The notes beneath the pieces are model-generated. The model was not told the origin of the DNA. It saw nothing but the letters and a program-made list of their open reading frames with translations, and did no database searches. DNA of 12,038 bases from the IMG/VR virus record IMGVR_UViG_2568526312_000023; one strand, given 5' to 3'. The stretch comes from a virus (Duplodnaviria > Heunggongvirae > Uroviricota > Caudoviricetes). The number at the start of each line of letters is the position of its first letter. Positions within the stretch are counted from its first letter, which is position 1. Made by a program: the position numbers and the translations under genes. This document shows, in pieces, positions 3,375 to 12,038 of the stretch.

Positions 3375-4582
3375 TCCGGTTTTTCTCCCTCGCTGATTTT
3401 TACTTCCTGTTTCCATGCCTGGCTGAACTCATCACCACCATCACGCGGTGACAGTCCTTCACGTTCGCGGGCTTCGTTCGGACACATAACGCCGGATTTG
3501 ATGCCGCGCTCATAGGTGGCAAAGCGTTCGCCAGGTGTGGCCCGTAACAGGTCCGCGCTGTCAAACTCCACCTGATACCGGATACCAGGTACAGGCGAGG
3601 CCACCAGCAGGGCGTTTTTTATCTGCTGCTCAAAGTTCGCCAGCCACGGGCGCATCGTCATGGTGAGAAATGCGCGGCTTGCCTCGCTGAAATTGCTGTA
3701 GGTGCTGTTGCTGTATTCCTGCAAAAAAATCGGCGAGACGTTGAACATTCGGGCGATGTCTTCAATGGTGAAGCGACGGGAGGCCAGCCATTCAGCATCC
3801 TGATTACTCATGCCCAGCTGCTGATAGCTCATACCCCCTTCAAGGATGGGCGTTTTTCCGGCGTTTCTGGCCCCTTTGTAGCGTTCCAGTGCGGCTAATG
3901 CCTGTTTGCCCTTCACGCCGTCCAGCCATTCGCCTGACGTGATAACCCCTGCCGCCATCATGCCATCACGCATCACGCTCGCGCCGTGGCGTTGTTGGGC
4001 CAGCCCAAGCCCCAGCGATTCGCGGCAAATGGTTACAGGTGAGCGCCCCATAAAACCGTCATCCGTGGAGTAACGAAGGTGGAGAACCTCCCACGGTAAA
4101 TAGTTGCGGGTGTTTCCGGTGTAAGCGTCAGTGATGCAGTAGCGCCAGTTGTGTTCTCCTGTCTGCTCCACGTTCACCGACTGCGGCGGGTAAGGATGTA
4201 AAGCCGCCGGAAAACCATCACGCCCCCACTGAATCACCGCGTAAGCATTACCGTTTAACAGGCAGTGGCGGATCATCATTCGCTTAAACTGGTAGGGAGT
4301 CTGCCACGCGTTCGGGCGCTCGTTGAGGATGTGATCGACCGGATGAGAATCAAGCCACTCTCGGGCCTCCTTCCCCTTCTCATTGCGTACCAGGTACAGG
4401 TAACACGGCATGGTAGCCACCGCCTCAGAGATGACCGTGACGGCGTTCATGACGGCGGGCAGTGATTCCGCTGTCCCCGATGATACGTACTCACCCGCCC
4501 CCGTGTTCGATGTGCCAGCCAGCGCCATAAACTCATCAAGCGTCATGCTGCGCTGCTCTTTTTTTCTTCTGAAAGGCCACAT
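3371..4582 (-). CDS. Portal protein, HK97 family
   Basis: 403 aa. Contains ESLPAVMNAVTVISEAVATMPCYLY and RRFTIEDIARMFNVSPIFLQ, which I recognise as HK97-type portal signatures. ATG at 4580-4582 preceded by GGGGGTG SD. Confidence 0.88.
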   Translation of the reverse strand: MWPFRRKKEQRSMTLDEFMALAGTSNTGAGEYVSSGTAESLPAVMNAVTVISEAVATMPCYLYLVRNEKGKEAREWLDSHPVDHILNERPNAWQTPYQFKRMMIRHCLLNGNAYAVIQWGRDGFPAALHPYPPQSVNVEQTGEHNWRYCITDAYTGNTRNYLPWEVLHLRYSTDDGFMGRSPVTICRESLGLGLAQQRHGASVMRDGMMAAGVITSGEWLDGVKGKQALAALERYKGARNAGKTPILEGGMSYQQLGMSNQDAEWLASRRFTIEDIARMFNVSPIFLQEYSNSTYSNFSEASRAFLTMTMRPWLANFEQQIKNALLVASPVPGIRYQVEFDSADLLRATPGERFATYERGIKSGVMCPNEAREREGLSPRDGGDEFSQAWKQEVKISEGEKPE

Positions 4583-6640: not shown

Positions 6641-6913
6641 TTATCTGTCCTGGTAATTTCGCCATATTTCATCACCAGCACCATCCATACCCATTTCGGC
6701 ATAAGTGCGATCGACCGCCTTTTTCAGGTCTCCGTAATTATCCGGCGGCTCCGGTGGCCTCTGTGCCTTCCTGGAACATTCCAGCCGTCGCATCGTAACC
6801 TGATGCCGTTCCTTGTCTGTCTCCACCAGTTGCATGACTTCACCCCATCGCGCCGACGCTCTCCGGTAAAAGCCTTTCGCCTCCAGTTCTTCCGCTATGC
6901 GGTCATGTACCAT
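6641..6913 (-). CDS. PerC-family-like small transcriptional activator (putative late-gene activator)
   Basis: 90 aa from ATG at 6911-6913 (GGGGTGGGGA SD). N-terminal DRIAEELEAKGFYRRASARWGEVMQ resembles the PerC/Pch family motif (..LE.KG.WRRAA.RW..) as I recall it. Located directly upstream of the head operon leader. Confidence 0.55.
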   Translation of the reverse strand: MVHDRIAEELEAKGFYRRASARWGEVMQLVETDKERHQVTMRRLECSRKAQRPPEPPDNYGDLKKAVDRTYAEMGMDGAGDEIWRNYQDR

Positions 6914-7345: not shown

Positions 7346-7651
7346 TCAGTGAAGCGATCCGGCGTTATTCTTTTTCATCTCTTCCATCATTTTTTCAGTG
7401 AGCATTACGCACTGAAAACCCATGTTTTTGATGTCTACGGGTTTCATGCCTTTGTCAGTGGATATCACAGGCAGAATATCCTGATACACATCGCGGTCAG
7501 GGTAACTAAGCACACAAAGCGCCCATGATGCCACGGGTGAGGATCCTTCGTCTGTTTCAACCCACCAGCCTGGTGTAGCTGCGCTTATTTGCTGAATCGT
7601 GATCCGTCCGTTGTGCTTGTAAAGTTTTTCACCAAATTTTGGTTCGCTCAT
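7346..7651 (-). CDS. Hypothetical protein (101 aa)
   Basis: ORF with ATG at 7649-7651 forming an ATGA overlap with the upstream gene stop, in operon context. No motif recognised. Confidence 0.5.
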   Translation of the reverse strand: MSEPKFGEKLYKHNGRITIQQISAATPGWWVETDEGSSPVASWALCVLSYPDRDVYQDILPVISTDKGMKPVDIKNMGFQCVMLTEKMMEEMKKNNAGSLH

Positions 7652-7899
7652 GATTTCAACTCTCCGGTTTTAACGTTGATGGTTGTTACCTGTTCCGCTT
7701 CGGCAATCTCCCGTTCTGTCAACGTGGCAAAGTTTGCCGCTGCTGTGGTCATGAATGCGCTTATCAGGTCGGGATGTTCCTTCGCGTATCCTTCCCCTAC
7801 GTGTCGGTCTATCGTTCTGATTGCCACCTTTAAGGCCAGCTCTGTTATATCTAACGCTTTATATTTCGGCTCTGTTCTGTCTCTGCGTGTTCTGGTCAT
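7648..7899 (-). CDS. Hypothetical protein (83 aa)
   Basis: Preferred ATG at 7897-7899 with a strong GAGGTG SD 6 nt upstream. The track ORF extends to 7932 into the AT-rich/iteron region. No motif recognised. Confidence 0.55.
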   Translation of the reverse strand: MTRTRRDRTEPKYKALDITELALKVAIRTIDRHVGEGYAKEHPDLISAFMTTAAANFATLTEREIAEAEQVTTINVKTGELKS

Positions 7900-7932
7900 T
7901 TGCCACCTCAATTTATATATATATAGAAACAT

Positions 7933-8250
7933 GTGCGGGTTATGCGGGTTATTGGGTTATCTTAGCGTGCTAACCATTTTTTACCCTTTTATATCAGCAT
8001 GTTGCAAAACACCCTGTTTATTATTTGCTCACCACGTAACCCGCAAAACGCTCAAAATAACCCGCAAACGGGGTTTTTTCTGCGGGTTACGCATGACTGT
8101 CCGGTGTTACTTCAGTTATTCGCCTGCGGGTTATAATCGTGCTTTTGCGGGTTATAAATGCCCTTTTGCGGGTTACGTGCGGGTTATTGATTTCCTTTAT
8201 ATTCATGCACTTAATACACTTATACACAGGATAACCCGCATAACCCGCAA
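7933..8250. repeat. Iteron array, putative replication origin
   Basis: At least 11 copies of the 9-10 bp unit TGCGGGTTA(T/C) in both orientations. Forward copies at 7934, 7943, 8081, 8125, 8146, 8167, 8178; reverse copies (ATAACCCGCA) at 8037, 8057, 8231, 8241. Some pairs are spaced about 10 or 20-21 bp. They flank AT-rich tracts (7960-8030, 8190-8230) immediately downstream of the primase gene. Confidence 0.7.
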
Positions 8251-8271
8251 TTTTTTTCCTCACACAGGGGA

Positions 8272-10404
8272 TTAATCTTCATCATCAGGCTGGAACATCA
8301 GCACGTAAAAAACATGCTGCTTACCCCCAATCTTGCCCAGCGCCTTTTTTTTGTATCGGCGATCGCTTCCCTTCTCCAGCATTCCGGCAGCATCCAGGGC
8401 ACGCGCAAAATGCGCCGGATTAAATCCCTTCGCTATCTCACTCTCAAACACGTGCGGGAACGTGTAATAGCGCATCTCGTCATCTTCGTTGCGAATGCTC
8501 CCTTTTCTGTATCCGGCAAGCTCTTTAATCGGTAAATCACGCTCATCTGTATTGGGGTACGGAAGGTAGCGGCTAAACCCAAACGACGACAAAAACGCCT
8601 CAGCCTGTTCAACCATCTGTTTAAATTCCCTGTTACCCGTGCCGAACTCCTTCACCCAGGCATTAAAGTTATGCTGTATCGCGTCGCGGCATTCCTGCAC
8701 GACCCAGCCAGTTACATGACCGGAAAGCACAAGCGCGGCCTCCAGTATGGCGAAACGTTCACCCACGCGGTGGACCTGCTCGCCGTAACTCTCCGGTATC
8801 AGGTTGCGCCACCGTTCGCGGCATTCCCTTACCGTGTCCTTTGCCTCCTGCTGGTGGCCTGCCAGCCATTTAACCCACTCACGACCCGCCGCCCCGTGAT
8901 TTGCTGTCCAGGCATCCTTTAACGCGTCAGCATGTTCCTTACCGTTGCTGTATTCGTGAAATTTCGTGGCTTTTTCCATCGGAACGTTAAGCAGTCGGAC
9001 AAGCTGCCCCGCCTTAACTTTTATCCCCTCACTTTTGAGGAATGTCTCAACGTCCATTTCTCCGGTGCTGATTGCCACCGTTCGCCAGTGTTTGATCTCC
9101 CTGTTGCCGCCATCCTTCGCCCCCTGCAATTTCCCTGAACCGTTAAACAGCGTATAAGCAGACGTTGACACTTCCCGCGCATTTCCGGCCTGGCCTATCT
9201 CATCCAGTGGTAAAAGCCCGTCATTATGGGCCTCGGCCTCATTGGCAATACCTAACGCCGTGCCGTACCAGGTCAGCCGCTGCGCGTCCGGCTCTCCCCA
9301 TAAACTTGATGCGATGTTCTGCGTGGTGGTCTTACCTGCCGATGACTGTTCGAAAAGATGCACCCCGAAGCCGTCAGCACCCACAAGGCCAATTAAAGGC
9401 GCTGCCAGTGACGTTGCCACACCCAGTATCATTGAGGCATTACCGCCAGCCAGCCGCGCCACGCTGTCGCGCCAGCCATCCGCCGTGCCCGCCACGGAAT
9501 AACCGTTAATCGCGGCGCTTTTTCCGGTAAACAGGATCGGTTTTTCAGATTCACCAATGATCGAACCGTCCGGCATGATGTACGCGCCAAAATGCCAGCC
9601 CGTTGTTGTGCTTAACTGCCATTCCTCATGGCTTCCGCTTAACTGCATCCAGTCCGCCAGGATTGCCCTGTATTTGCCGTTGGTTGTCACGTTCAGCCCG
9701 TGATCTTTAAGTAACCGCCAGCCGTCACGGTCGCCGATACCACCACACGGGATCGCCATTGTGATGACTTCATGGTTTGCGGTTTTTTTCCAGCGCATCA
9801 CGCGGTAATGCTCTTTACCGATCGTCCCCGTTCCCAGTAGTTCAAGCGGAGAACATAACCACGTCTCAGGCCGGATAATTTCGCCTGACTGCTTATCCAC
9901 TTTGGGCGTTACCCAGAAAACACCATCGGCGCGACTTTCAACGCGTGGCTTTAATTCGTCATCGCTATGGCTTCCGGTATCTTTTTTCTTTACCGGAAAC
10001 TCAATAACCAGACCATCAGAAAGATTCTGCCGCTCACGGGCCAGATATTCGCGCCAGTTCTCCACCTTCTGACCGTGCATACCCTCAGGATAAAAATTTG
10101 CATCCTGTACACCAGCCGCCGCCAGCTTTTGACCAATCGCCTTGATCATTACTGGTGCAAGATGTCCGGCCCTGAATATGCGCACGGATTTTCTGCCTTC
10201 CGGCACAATTTGCAGCTTATCCAGTTCTGATAACTGCTGCTCCCCAAGCCACACAGGAGGCACATTATCGCCGGATGCGGGGCCGTCCTGCTCCTGCCAC
10301 TGTTTTGCATGTGCCCACGCATCACTACCCGCGAAAATAATCACCTCTGTGTCTTTGTGTTTTATTCCGCGTGGCTGTTTTTTTACGTTCGGTGCCAGTT
10401 TCAT
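8272..10404 (-). CDS. Primase/helicase-type replication initiator (satellite/P4-like pri-rep)
   Basis: 710 aa. Central P-loop-like motif GVHLFEQSSAGKTTTQ. Large size and position directly upstream of the iteron origin. ATG at 10402-10404 with ATGA overlap to the upstream ORF. Confidence 0.75.
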   Translation of the reverse strand: MKLAPNVKKQPRGIKHKDTEVIIFAGSDAWAHAKQWQEQDGPASGDNVPPVWLGEQQLSELDKLQIVPEGRKSVRIFRAGHLAPVMIKAIGQKLAAAGVQDANFYPEGMHGQKVENWREYLARERQNLSDGLVIEFPVKKKDTGSHSDDELKPRVESRADGVFWVTPKVDKQSGEIIRPETWLCSPLELLGTGTIGKEHYRVMRWKKTANHEVITMAIPCGGIGDRDGWRLLKDHGLNVTTNGKYRAILADWMQLSGSHEEWQLSTTTGWHFGAYIMPDGSIIGESEKPILFTGKSAAINGYSVAGTADGWRDSVARLAGGNASMILGVATSLAAPLIGLVGADGFGVHLFEQSSAGKTTTQNIASSLWGEPDAQRLTWYGTALGIANEAEAHNDGLLPLDEIGQAGNAREVSTSAYTLFNGSGKLQGAKDGGNREIKHWRTVAISTGEMDVETFLKSEGIKVKAGQLVRLLNVPMEKATKFHEYSNGKEHADALKDAWTANHGAAGREWVKWLAGHQQEAKDTVRECRERWRNLIPESYGEQVHRVGERFAILEAALVLSGHVTGWVVQECRDAIQHNFNAWVKEFGTGNREFKQMVEQAEAFLSSFGFSRYLPYPNTDERDLPIKELAGYRKGSIRNEDDEMRYYTFPHVFESEIAKGFNPAHFARALDAAGMLEKGSDRRYKKKALGKIGGKQHVFYVLMFQPDDED

Positions 10405-10700
10405 TTTTTACCCCTGAATACGTTAAGCATCTTTTTTATTTCCTGAATATTGGCGCGTGCTTTCTCCCTGCTGGTTGGTTTACTGCGGGGCGCTGCCTGT
10501 ACCAGAGAAAAATCACGCCGGAACTGATAAACAGGCATCACGCAATCATATTCGTAGCCTTCACGATGGTAGGTTACGCGCCGTTCCTCCACGCCCTTAA
10601 TCATTACCGTGCCGCCGTACTTATCGCGGTAAATATCCCCGCACATGAATTTAGTGCGAGTTTTGCCGCTGGCAGTTAAGCCAGAATATTTAAGTTTCAT
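10401..10700 (-). CDS. Hypothetical protein (99 aa), translationally coupled to the primase gene
   Basis: ATG at 10698-10700 with GGAG upstream. Stop overlaps the primase ATG (ATGA). Basic C-terminus. No motif recognised. Confidence 0.55.
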   Translation of the reverse strand: MKLKYSGLTASGKTRTKFMCGDIYRDKYGGTVMIKGVEERRVTYHREGYEYDCVMPVYQFRRDFSLVQAAPRSKPTSREKARANIQEIKKMLNVFRGKK

Positions 10701-10705
10701 TATTT

Positions 10706-10966
10706 TTATTCTCCGATAGCGTGACCTGATAAGCCGTTAATCTTCTCTGATGTGCTCTCTATTTTGCTGGTTGAACTATCCAGTAATTCAGAAACGGCTA
10801 ATATTAATCTTGCGGTTGATTCATCGCGTTCATTATTCGCCAGCGACTGAAGCCACATGTTCATTACTTCGTTCGCTGCGTTGTTTAAAGATATTGCGCT
10901 GTTGGCAAGGCTTCTTAATTCACTGGTCGCCAGTTTGTTATTGTTCATAGCGTTTAAATCTCTCAT
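10706..10966 (-). CDS. Hypothetical Asn/Ser-rich small protein
   Basis: ORF in a visibly AT-rich patch. Starts at ATG 10964-10966 or ATG 10946-10948 (the latter overlaps the upstream stop). Composition is atypical for the rest of the element. Confidence 0.4.
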   Translation of the reverse strand: MRDLNAMNNNKLATSELRSLANSAISLNNAANEVMNMWLQSLANNERDESTARLILAVSELLDSSTSKIESTSEKINGLSGHAIGE

Positions 10967-11129
10967 CAATTAACCACAGCGCAACACTTCCAGAAAGTTT
11001 TGCCAGAAGGCCAGCTAATGCGGATATATCACCATCATTTAATTTATCAGGGTATACCTCAAGAAGGCGGCAAATAATTTCTGTCTGGTGCGCACGTTCA
11101 GCGGCTTCGTGTAATGTAATTTCCTTCAT
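10938..11129 (-). CDS. Hypothetical protein (63 aa)
   Basis: ATG at 11127-11129 overlapping the upstream stop by 1 nt (TAATG), indicating translational coupling. No motif recognised. Confidence 0.45.
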   Translation of the reverse strand: MKEITLHEAAERAHQTEIICRLLEVYPDKLNDGDISALAGLLAKLSGSVALWLIDERFKRYEQ

Positions 11130-11314
11130 TAATGCACCTCTTTTAATTCATACACTGCTGAAATAATGACTTGTGATAAGCCATATTCTGATGATTCGCT
11201 TCTCACCGCAGCAATAGCCGTCTGAACATTAACAGCCTTCACATTCTGAGCGATACCAATTGTGTGGCCTAGTGGGTTAACAGCGCTGGCAAATACACGG
11301 AAGGTTTTAAGCAT
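11129..11314 (-). CDS. Hypothetical protein (61 aa)
   Basis: ATG at 11312-11314 embedded in the upstream gene's 3' end (ATGCTTAA overlap). No motif recognised. Confidence 0.45.
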   Translation of the reverse strand: MLKTFRVFASAVNPLGHTIGIAQNVKAVNVQTAIAAVRSESSEYGLSQVIISAVYELKEVH

Positions 11315-11507
11315 GGCACACCCCCTGACGAATACGAGCGGCGAATACCATCACGCAGCCAGCCGGAGATTGCTGGCGCGCTTCCTGTTCGCTGGTGGCC
11401 TCGATGGTAATCACGCGCGGCTGTGCCGTGCTCAGGGCGATAAAACGCCAGATGTATTTATTCAGGTTGTGCGAGTCCCGCCCTTGCGGGTGTGTGGTAT
11501 GATTTCT
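11307..11507 (-). CDS. Icd-like protein (P4 Icd-type cell-division-inhibitor family)
   Basis: 66 aa from ATG at 11505-11507 (GAGGT SD). YIWRFIALSTAQPRVITIEATSEQEARQQSPAGCVMVFAARI matches the Icd-like pattern (FIW.F.A...P....I.A.SE.EAR.....FAARxP) as I recall it. First gene after the operator-bearing promoter. Confidence 0.55.
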   Translation of the reverse strand, partial: RNHTTHPQGRDSHNLNKYIWRFIALSTAQPRVITIEATSEQEARQQSPAGCVMVFAARIRQGVCHA

Positions 11508-11607
11508 CATAGCTACCTCGATACTTTCGCTATCGTTGGTTGTTAGACGCCCTGCATGTGTTGCGAGCACTGTAGGGCGTTGCTTAATTTGAGTGACAAA
11601 ACTCAAA

Positions 11608-11690
11608 CTGTGCGCACAGATTAAAATCATGTGTGCGCACATGTCAATACTTAACATCTCATTTTTTTTGCTGTATTGTGTGCGCCCATA
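11608..11690. promoter_or_regulatory. Divergent promoter region with three TGTGCGCACA-type operator palindromes
   Basis: Perfect 10-bp palindrome TGTGCGCACA at 11609-11618 and 11632-11641, and a degenerate copy TGTGCGCCCA at 11679-11688. Minus-strand promoter candidate: -35 TTGACA (11642-11647), 16-nt spacer containing the second palindrome, -10 TTTAAT (11620-11625) adjoining the first. The third copy lies 28 nt upstream of the ribbon-helix-helix gene start. Confidence 0.55.
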
Positions 11691-11715
11691 AAGTCCATTT
11701 AAGTGAGGTGCATCA

Positions 11716-11913
11716 ATGTCTAGCGGTAACACAAACAACAAATCAGCAAAGAAAAATATTCGATTCCCACATGAGCTTATAGATGGGATTGATGCCAGCG
11801 TTGAACAAGAAAAATTAACTAATCCTAGTGCTAATTTTTCCGCATGGGTCTTAGATGCCTGTGGACGCAAATTAAAATATGAACAGCGCCGCAAGGCCAA
11901 AGAGCAGGAATAG
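11716..11913 (+). CDS. Arc/Mnt-like ribbon-helix-helix DNA-binding protein (putative repressor)
   Basis: 65 aa. Strong SD GAGGTG 5 nt upstream of the ATG. KNIRFPHELIDGIDASVEQEKL...NFSAWVLDA fits the Arc motif N-[LI]-R-[WF]-P-x-E-[LV]. Divergent from the early operon. Confidence 0.7.
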   Translation: MSSGNTNNKSAKKNIRFPHELIDGIDASVEQEKLTNPSANFSAWVLDACGRKLKYEQRRKAKEQE

Positions 11914-12001
11914 TCCACCAGCAAGCCAGCACACTGAGCACATTGCCCACCAGACAGCAAATCGCTATGATGTTCTGGCTTATGTTTAGTGTTTTCCCAT
12001 T

Positions 12002-12030
12002 GGCGACCGCCACAGGTCGCCTTTGTTTTA
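12002..12030 (+). terminator. Putative rho-independent terminator downstream of the ribbon-helix-helix gene
   Basis: GGCGACC-GCCACA-GGTCGCC hairpin (7-bp stem) followed by TTTGTTTTA on the plus strand. Confidence 0.45.
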
Positions 12031-12038
12031 TGTGTCAT

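Follow-up and report, generated by a model that had tools for sequence, protein, structure and literature searches.

Four coupled small genes between an Icd-like gene and the primase of a capsid-forming phage-inducible chromosomal island: an exchangeable cassette and an RgdR orthologue

The closest described relatives of the element studied here are prophage-like element Sp7 of Escherichia coli Sakai, which is the same as O-island 51 (OI-51) or CP-933C (PMC3378721), and its copy in strain EDL933, EcCIEDL933, the prototype of those phage-inducible chromosomal islands (PICIs) that are capsid-forming (bioRxiv 10.1101/2022.09.08.507074). The latter has been shown experimentally to be induced by helper phage through AlpA and to use only the tails of the helper (bioRxiv 10.1101/2022.09.08.507074). 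The ECs1581 gene of Sp7 encodes RgdR, a protein of 99 amino acids (aa) with an isoelectric point (pI) of about 10 (PMC3378721), whose function is also described in PMC10877973 and which is encoded by all E. coli PICIs analysed by Fillol-Salom et al. (PMC6092414). Deletion of rgdR reduces both type III secretion and adherence when the cultures are uninduced, and RgdR activates LEE1 of the enterocyte effacement locus (LEE) without the need of Ler, represses motility, and shows weak, non-specific binding to DNA (PMC3378721). In the present work we analyse the virus record IMGVR_UViG_2568526312_000023, a stretch of 12,038 nucleotides (nt) referred to as the window, in which four small minus-strand open reading frames (ORF1–4) lie between an Icd-like gene and a primase gene (Table 1). 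The comparisons described below identify ORF1–3 as one allele of an exchangeable cassette, which is swapped within a fixed frame made up of the Icd-like gene on one side and of rgdR and the replication (Rep) gene on the other, and ORF4 as RgdR. To these they add, as a modest new point, a consistent coupling of the RgdR domain, DUF4222, to replication initiators in satellites and lambdoid prophages alike.

Table 1. Positions of the genes and candidate control sites in the window, and the cassette families found in related loci
Feature	Position	Strand	Size	Assignment and supporting matches
Icd-like gene	11307..11510	minus	67 aa	first gene of the operon; NCBIfam phage_ICD_like, E 1.4e-19; phrog_6196, E 1.2e-46; RefSeq annotation of a relative
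ORF1	11129-11314	minus	61 aa	cassette family A; orthologue of ECs1578/Z1840; phrog_3672, E 9e-46
ORF2	10938-11129	minus	63 aa	cassette family B; orthologue of ECs1579; phrog_1478, E 4e-34
ORF3	10706-10948	minus	80 aa (RefSeq start)	cassette family E; orthologue of ECs1580/Z1841; phrog_5796, E 1.5e-52; weaker phrog_2196, E 1.3e-10
ORF4	10401-10700	minus	99 aa	RgdR orthologue (ECs1581); Pfam DUF4222, E 5e-23
Primase/replication-initiator gene	8272..10404	minus	710 aa	end of the coupled chain; Pfam DUF927, E 1.4e-48; phrog_1139 DNA primase, E 8e-191
Candidate promoter/operator region	11605..11689			three TGTGCGCACA palindromes at 11609-18, 11632-41 and 11679-88, the last with one mismatch
YlcI/YnfO-family (DUF3950) gene	11716..11913	plus		divergent; may regulate the operon; NCBIfam YlcI_YnfO_N, E 3.5e-16; Pfam DUF3950, E 1.6e-6
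Iteron field, candidate replication origin	7931..8251			just downstream of the primase gene; 9-mer TGCGGGTTA about 8 times direct, TAACCCGCA 4 times inverted; GC 0.42
Two overlapping small ORFs	7346-7651 and 7648-7899/7932	minus	101 aa (first)	downstream of the candidate origin; phrog_27268 and phrog_1231
PerC/PchE-family gene	6641-6913	minus		between the SSB and capsid genes; Pfam PerC, E 1e-43
Cassette family A			61 aa	ORF1 type
Cassette family B			63-76 aa	ORF2 type
Cassette family C			73-85 aa	
Cassette family F			121 aa	
Cassette family D			73-77 aa	
Cassette family E			73-80 aa	ORF3 type

The window element can be assigned to the capsid-forming PICIs of the EcCIEDL933 (OI-51, Sakai Sp7) type. 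Its genes run, all on the minus strand, from the Icd-like gene through ORF1–4 to the DUF927 primase, two small ORFs, the single-stranded DNA-binding protein (SSB) and PerC, followed by the packaging genes in the order major capsid, prohead protease, portal, head closure, head-tail connector, HNH, TerS and TerL. A capsid-forming PICI combines, within about 15 kb, PICI-type genes for regulation and replication with a capsid, protease, portal, connectors, HNH and TerS/TerL of its own. This set is complete once int and alpA, which lie outside the window, are supplied by the island of E. coli 10671, with which the window shares 97.9% identity over 11.5 kb. That island, the closest full-length relative, spans 15 kb with an integrase, a helix-turn-helix regulator at the position of alpA, primase, SSB, PerC, capsid, protease, portal, connectors, HNH and TerS/TerL, and it is integrated beside thiM, unlike the OI-51 site. 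Bases 7648-11348 of the window show 99.2% DNA identity to Sp7, and the layout of the Sakai genes ECs_1577-1582 is identical to that of the window, the counterparts of ORF1–4 following one another in unchanged order from the Icd-like gene to the DUF927 primase. The locus is essentially one that is already known, ECs1578-ECs1581 of OI-51/EcCIEDL933, the capsid-forming PICI that has been studied most, with ORF4 as RgdR, and its placement in a satellite by the original prediction, which was made from the DNA letters, is borne out. The likeness to Sp7 ends at a mosaic breakpoint near 11348, inside the Icd-like gene: 11349-12038 has no Sp7 alignment at all, the Icd-like gene and everything upstream of the breakpoint represent a different allele, the Sakai Icd-like protein differs from that of the window in its N-terminal two thirds, and the packaging half of the window is just 94–96% identical to Sp7.

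The four ORFs are genuine genes under purifying selection. They are present within 10401-11314 at the limits predicted earlier, with lengths of 61, 63, 80 or 86, and 99 aa, RefSeq annotates the same ORFs in near-identical loci, and their ratios of nonsynonymous to synonymous substitution (dN/dS, Nei-Gojobori, against diverged orthologues) all fall between 0.16 and 0.42, with 0.19–0.27 for ORF1, about 0.34 for ORF2 and 0.16–0.26 for ORF3. For the latter, alternative starts are offered by an ATG at 10966 (86 aa) and a TTG at 10969 (87 aa). Five junctions separate the Icd-like gene from the primase, and at four of them the proposed chaining through overlapping start and stop codons holds. The Icd-like gene and ORF1 overlap by 8 nt (ATGCTTAA), ORF1 and ORF2 by 1 nt (TAATG), ORF2 and ORF3 by 11 nt, or by 29 nt if the longer ORF3 start is used, and the stop of ORF4 lies over the start of the primase in an ATGA overlap. 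The junction between ORF3 and ORF4, on the other hand, is a 5-nt gap, with GGAG located 10 nt ahead of the ORF4 ATG. Shine-Dalgarno-like purine-rich runs precede the starts of ORF1, ORF2, ORF4 and the primase. With only overlaps or a 5-nt gap between the genes, translation from one mRNA would be possible.

The AT-rich patch reported for the cluster corresponds to 10706-11314, which is the lowest-GC 609-nt stretch of the whole window, with a GC content of 0.419 as compared to 0.523 in the rest (z 5.2). At third codon positions the GC content (GC3) of ORF1–3 is 0.30–0.44, while the deviation is smaller for ORF4 (0.51). The primase, SSB, PerC and packaging genes have values of 0.55–0.66, and the small hypothetical genes at 7346-7651 and 7648-7899 lie in between (0.49–0.51). 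The Asn/Ser-rich protein of the earlier description is that of ORF3, in which these two residues make up 30%. The calculated pI values are 8.2 (near neutral) for ORF1, 5.2 for ORF2, 4.8 for ORF3 and 10.05 for ORF4.

The exchangeable nature of ORF1–3 emerges from 16 related E. coli loci, of which 13 were sampled from the E. coli chromosomes matched in the DNA search and the others are those of strain 10671, Sakai Sp7 and CFT073. Between conserved Icd-like and DUF4222 genes, these loci contain one to four small ORFs that belong to at least six unrelated families (Table 1). The order of the families is always A, B, C, F, D, E, and all junctions in the cassette are overlaps or gaps of 1–6 nt. The cassette content is independent of the type of Rep, as the DUF927 primase, a D5-type primase and a RepA helicase are each accompanied by various cassettes. 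In a megablast search of 5426 complete E. coli genomes, the ends of the query (the Icd-like gene on one side, rgdR and the start of the primase on the other) match widely and the middle often does not: rgdR-like DNA is present in 1242 genomes, ORF1–3 of the window at a query coverage of at least 80% in only 146, and ORF1 and ORF2 alone in roughly 130 more.

EcCICFT073, the classical PICI of E. coli, provides a useful comparison. It shares with the window the order of Icd-like gene, small-gene cassette, DUF4222 gene (c1493, which is rgdR) and primase, as well as the tight coupling of these genes, a family B member that is 52% identical to ORF2, and a family E member that is 25–30% identical to ORF3. 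Its cassette, B-C-D-E3, differs in having four genes, in lacking family A, and in containing families C and D, which are not found in the window. The D+E3 pair of this island occurs at a coverage of at least 80% in 787 of the 5426 genomes, and this type of cassette is thus about five times commoner in E. coli genomes than that of the window. The recognition of ORF1–3 as one allele of an exchangeable cassette in a fixed frame is a modest new point. The variable small-gene islet of the original prediction therefore stands for ORF1–3 and not for ORF4, which is the constant and published RgdR. Such a frame would give any search for accessory functions of satellites about six small protein families to start from, a set that is well delimited and simple to test. 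A common origin of families B and E was considered and rejected (hhalign probability 0.35%, E 0.17). There are also signs of decay and fusion in the cassette: in strain 61_150228 (1089-1316 of its locus) the ORF1 homologue runs on into a truncated ORF2, for which there is no annotation, and in strain E2863 (2050-2487 of its locus) families B and C are fused into one ORF of 145 aa.

In 15 of the 16 loci the gene immediately ahead of rgdR is of family E, to which ORF3 belongs, the window ORF3 being only 25–30% identical to the common E subtype; the exception is ETEC4090, in which rgdR occurs without any family E gene. The recurrence of the two genes as a pair, with a small acidic gene 5 nt upstream of a small basic one, would be consistent with a toxin-antitoxin or similar addiction pair formed by ORF3 and RgdR, a function that had been listed among those expected of the cluster. 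However, neither a toxin nor an antitoxin family was matched in Pfam, NCBIfam or PADLOC, so that no type II membership could be recognized, ETEC4090 has rgdR without a family E partner, and a 59-aa DUF4222 gene stands alone upstream of O-like genes in lambdoid phages. Over-expression of RgdR from a plasmid was moreover accompanied by no reported toxicity (PMC3378721). We consider an addiction pair highly improbable.

The assignment of ORF4 as RgdR is supported by both domain and full-length comparisons. The match to Pfam PF13973 (DUF4222) covers residues 18–68 with a score of 80.8 bits, for a cut-off of 27, and the earlier view that none of the four ORFs carries a motif that can be placed thus fails for this gene. 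The protein is 96% identical over 99 aa to the translation of Sakai ECs_1581, with four residues that differ, as compared to the threshold of more than 77% over 99 aa that was adopted for orthologues in PMC3378721, and a RefSeq locus of 98% identity is annotated as "rgdR: prophage regulator RgdR". Like the RgdR described in PMC3378721, it has 99 aa, is basic, has its conserved core at residues 20–68 and is encoded directly upstream of the primase.

One difference concerns the tripeptide at residues 20–22, the RGD after which the protein was named (PMC3378721). The window copy has C20-G21-D22 in place of it, with K35 as in the state found in enterohaemorrhagic E. coli (EHEC), whereas the Sakai protein has R20. 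Among the aligned E. coli copies of RgdR position 20 is R, C, N or P. The RGD tripeptide is thus not conserved across the family, and the CGD sequence bears on activity rather than on homology. The ED1a variant, which likewise has C20, activated no secretion and showed no DNA binding, but the engineered R20C substitution in ECs1581 did not abolish activity (PMC3378721), and the LEE activity of the window RgdR can therefore not be predicted from this residue. A single-sequence AlphaFold model of RgdR tentatively places four strands at residues 23–54 and a C-terminal helix at 77–96, with a mean predicted local distance difference test (pLDDT) score of 51.6, which makes the model unreliable.

The position of DUF4222 genes relative to replication initiators was examined by a pattern scan with one genome per species, which gave 20 further loci in the Enterobacterales. 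These span Escherichia, Shigella, Atlantibacter, Citrobacter, Serratia, Providencia, Symbiopectobacterium and others, most of them being outside Escherichia and Shigella. In most of the 20 loci, a large ORF follows the DUF4222 ORF with an overlap or a gap of at most 9 nt. This downstream ORF matches a replication-initiation PHROG in 16 of the 20 loci and a primase in two more, which makes 18 of 20 together, and the ATGA overlap between rgdR and the initiator is present in every PICI examined. The initiator coupling in these 18 loci and the invariant ATGA junction in the PICIs argue that the ancestral job of DUF4222 would lie in the replication/early module.

The coupling extends to lambdoid phages. 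In phage vB_EcoS-733R5, a DUF4222 ORF of 59 aa overlaps the start of the O-like gene by 11 nt. The phage DUF4222 proteins differ from RgdR in their length of 54–78 aa and in having no basic C-terminal tail. In a tblastn search of RgdR against deposited phage genomes, only three lambdoid phages were matched. In two phages, vB_EcoS-733R5 and Klebsiella ST101-KPC2phi6.3, the deposited annotation has a hypothetical coding sequence (CDS) on the opposite strand and leaves the DUF4222 ORF unannotated. In the former, the annotated CDS is at 3438-3725 and the DUF4222 ORF, which overlaps the replication-protein gene, at 3480-3659 on the plus strand. The opposite-strand CDSs are probably strand mis-calls.

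The replication setting has to be weighed against the possibility that all four ORFs are lysogenic-conversion genes ("morons") that regulate the virulence or motility of the host and have no role in the life cycle of the satellite. Such a role would account for the lower secretion and adherence of the uninduced rgdR deletion strain and for the reduced colonisation of sheep upon deletion of OI-51 (PMC3378721), and it would agree with the PerC/PchE homologue that is also encoded on the island. It would not explain why the rgdR-initiator overlap is kept in all the PICIs and why DUF4222 is coupled to initiators in the other loci. In addition, RgdR homologues are found in E. coli that have no LEE (PMC3378721), and the ORF1 orthologue is silent in most of the conditions for which reads have been counted (PMC4048457). 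We therefore regard an exclusive role in lysogenic conversion as improbable. If RgdR is indeed a DNA binder of the replication module, the control of type III secretion may be a by-product, and the EHEC phenotype would be read differently.

Concerning ORF1–3, the sequence searches give a narrow distribution. ORF1 is identical at the DNA level (100%) to ECs1578 of Sakai, and the ORF2 and ORF3 proteins are 95 and 96% identical to their Sakai counterparts. In a collection of 5.8 billion proteins, relatives were found in 11 clusters for ORF1, 43 for ORF2 and 22 for ORF3, and all the named relatives are from Escherichia, Shigella or E. albertii: the named clusters are all E. coli for ORF1, Escherichia, Shigella and E. 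albertii for ORF2, and all Escherichia for ORF3. An exhaustive HMMER search of 1.84 billion representatives with ORF1 returned six matches, the named ones again being from E. coli, and all six are close relatives except for one protein of 247 aa (P0079). The latter, the lone ORF1 relative found outside a PICI context, has a hexapeptide-repeat, acetyltransferase-like N-terminal part and an ORF1-like segment at residues 187–242 with 50% identity, and represents either a gene fusion or a read-through in gene calling. For ORF2, a 52% identical homologue is found in Klebsiella temperate phages, where, as for gp35 of KPP5665-2, it is one of a series of small ORFs that overlap each other in the operon next to the repressor gene. 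A tblastn search of deposited phage genomes, a set expected to include P4, gave these Klebsiella phages only for ORF2 and nothing for ORF1 or ORF3, no phage in the collection carrying either of the two.

Profile searches assign no function to these three proteins. ORF1–3 have no match in Pfam, NCBIfam or PADLOC, and their PHROG matches are all of unassigned function; DUF4222 in ORF4 is the only domain that the profile searches identified in the cluster. PDB sequence and profile searches with all four families gave nothing below an E value of 0.4, and the AlphaFold model of ORF1, which was built from a 7-sequence alignment and has a mean pLDDT of 57.6, is too poor for a fold search. In the literature, the locus tags of ORF1–3 appear only in one comparative-hybridisation table and one RNA-seq table. 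According to the latter, no reads of Z1840 were counted for EDL933 under 8 of 11 conditions, while growth in LB supplemented with antibiotics gave 9 (logFC 5.6), and 70% of the genes that are highly up-regulated under this last condition are from prophages, CP-933C included (PMC4048457); the correspondence of Z1840 to ECs1578, and thus to ORF1, is given in PMC1890555. The counts are small but consistent with expression during induction.

Several of these features have to be considered with respect to the functions proposed for the cluster in the original prediction, namely helper interference, anti-defence and toxin-antitoxin activity. If the small ORFs interfered with the late genes, packaging or capsid assembly of the helper phage, as Ppi, Rpp, Sid and Psu do elsewhere, the variability of the cassette could track different helpers, and small interference genes do have a general precedent in satellites (bioRxiv 10.1101/2022.09.08.507074). 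However, EcCIEDL933, in which ORF1–3 are 97.7–100% identical to those of the window, leaves the titres of HK106 and HK446 unreduced (bioRxiv 10.1101/2022.09.08.507074). The known interference genes of E. coli PICIs are moreover in the packaging module and not upstream of rep, and the tblastn results given above also speak against this function, which we judge very unlikely.

A second possibility is that ORF1–3 are counter-defence or host-takeover genes, that is, small acidic early proteins directed at restriction, other immunity systems or host factors as the island arrives in a new cell or is induced, the cassette being a hotspot where such genes are swapped. The mosaic cassette with its constant flanks, the acidity of families B–F (pI 4.2–5.3), the promoter-proximal position behind a gene resembling a cell-division inhibitor, and the ORF2 homologue that Klebsiella temperate phages carry among small genes next to their repressor are all compatible with this, and the low GC content suggests a separate acquisition. 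On the other hand, Pfam and PDB searches reveal no similarity of ORF1–3 to a known anti-defence protein or solved structure, ORF1 is not acidic, and the fixed order of the families together with the near-constant family E fit poorly with a hotspot that is free for all. As to known defence systems, no PADLOC or Pfam match to any was obtained with the four ORFs, PADLOC giving no family at E values up to 0.1 for ORF1–4 and their neighbours in a collection that covers defence and not counter-defence. Taken together, we consider a counter-defence function to be possible but rather unlikely.

The explanation that we favour, and to which we assign a moderate likelihood, is that the region is the promoter-proximal part of an early regulation/replication operon composed of the Icd-like gene, ORF1, ORF2, ORF3, rgdR and the primase/Rep gene. 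In such an operon, the primary job of RgdR would be that of a DNA-binding accessory factor inside the replication/early module, made in step with the initiator, and its effect on the virulence genes of the host would be a side activity of a promiscuous DNA binder. ORF1–3 would be dispensable accessory early proteins, comparable to those that temperate phages encode in small early genes, the ORF2 homologue among them. Upon induction of the island or its fresh injection, ORF1–3 would probably bind host proteins, phage or defence proteins being a further possibility, and their low GC content may reflect separate acquisition by recombination. As to the original prediction, the ORFs are conserved in related elements, which speaks against it, but their composition is abnormal and no housekeeping role is known for ORF1–3. 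Our confidence is high for the architecture and low to moderate for the functional part of this explanation.

A number of points weigh against it. Co-transcription is deduced from the spacing of the genes, and the replication role of RgdR from synteny alone. The published RgdR phenotypes concern host gene expression in uninduced cells, which implies basal expression outside the induced cycle and fits a lysogenic-conversion regulator equally well. The activity of ORF1–3 is supported neither by experiment nor by a structural match, the Pfam, NCBIfam, PADLOC and PDB profile searches being empty, and both AlphaFold models, those of ORF1 and RgdR, are unreliable. In view of its position beside rgdR in nearly all loci, family E could also be a core partner rather than an accessory gene. 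A more far-reaching proposal would make the slot between the Icd-like gene and rgdR an unrecognised exchange hotspot of enterobacterial PICIs, ORF1–3 three new and mutually unrelated inhibitors of immunity or host factors, and DUF4222 a general initiator-coupled replication factor and not a virulence regulator; this combination is, in our estimate, doubtful.

The sole strong promoter/operator candidate for the favoured early operon is located upstream of the Icd-like gene. Minus-strand hexamers TTGACA and TTTAAT, separated by 16 nt, were read directly from the sequence at 11605-11689, where they are overlapped by the palindromes of Table 1, and this region is probably the promoter/operator of the operon. 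The consensus promoter scan missed the site because TTTAAT has no A at position 2, and it listed neither promoters nor terminators on the minus strand between 10400 and 11510. The divergent YlcI/YnfO gene occupies the equivalent position in the six PICI loci with extended flanks and also in L012-L014, L037 and CFT073. Together with the palindromes, it looks like an operator-controlled switch beyond the AlpA control described for PICIs.

The immI operon of phage P1 (c4 RNA, icd, ant) is opened by an Icd-like gene, to which the genes that follow are coupled in translation. The window resembles it in layout only, with an Icd-like gene that opens the operon and coupled genes behind it. An Icd-like domain is present, but a search of Rfam upstream of the Icd-like gene for a c4-like RNA gave no match at the gathering score and only chance-level ones (E of at least 0.3), and no Ant or antirepressor domain is found in ORF1–4.

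At the other end of the coupled genes, the iteron field is the probable origin of the island, by analogy with the PICI layout in PMC6092414, and would also be a candidate target of RgdR.

Some further observations concern the neighbouring genes. A 243-aa ORF at 11307-12038, which starts exactly at the end of the window, is an artefact: it crosses the promoter/operator region and runs antisense to the YlcI/YnfO gene, and only its last 67 codons (11307-11510) correspond to the Icd-like gene. With RgdR and PerC, the island has homologues of two families of LEE regulators; PchE-type copies of the latter family do not activate LEE1 according to the literature. Finally, of the two small overlapping ORFs downstream of the candidate origin, the first has no annotation in the Sakai record, and the GC content of both (0.46–0.48) is lower than that of the surrounding genes.

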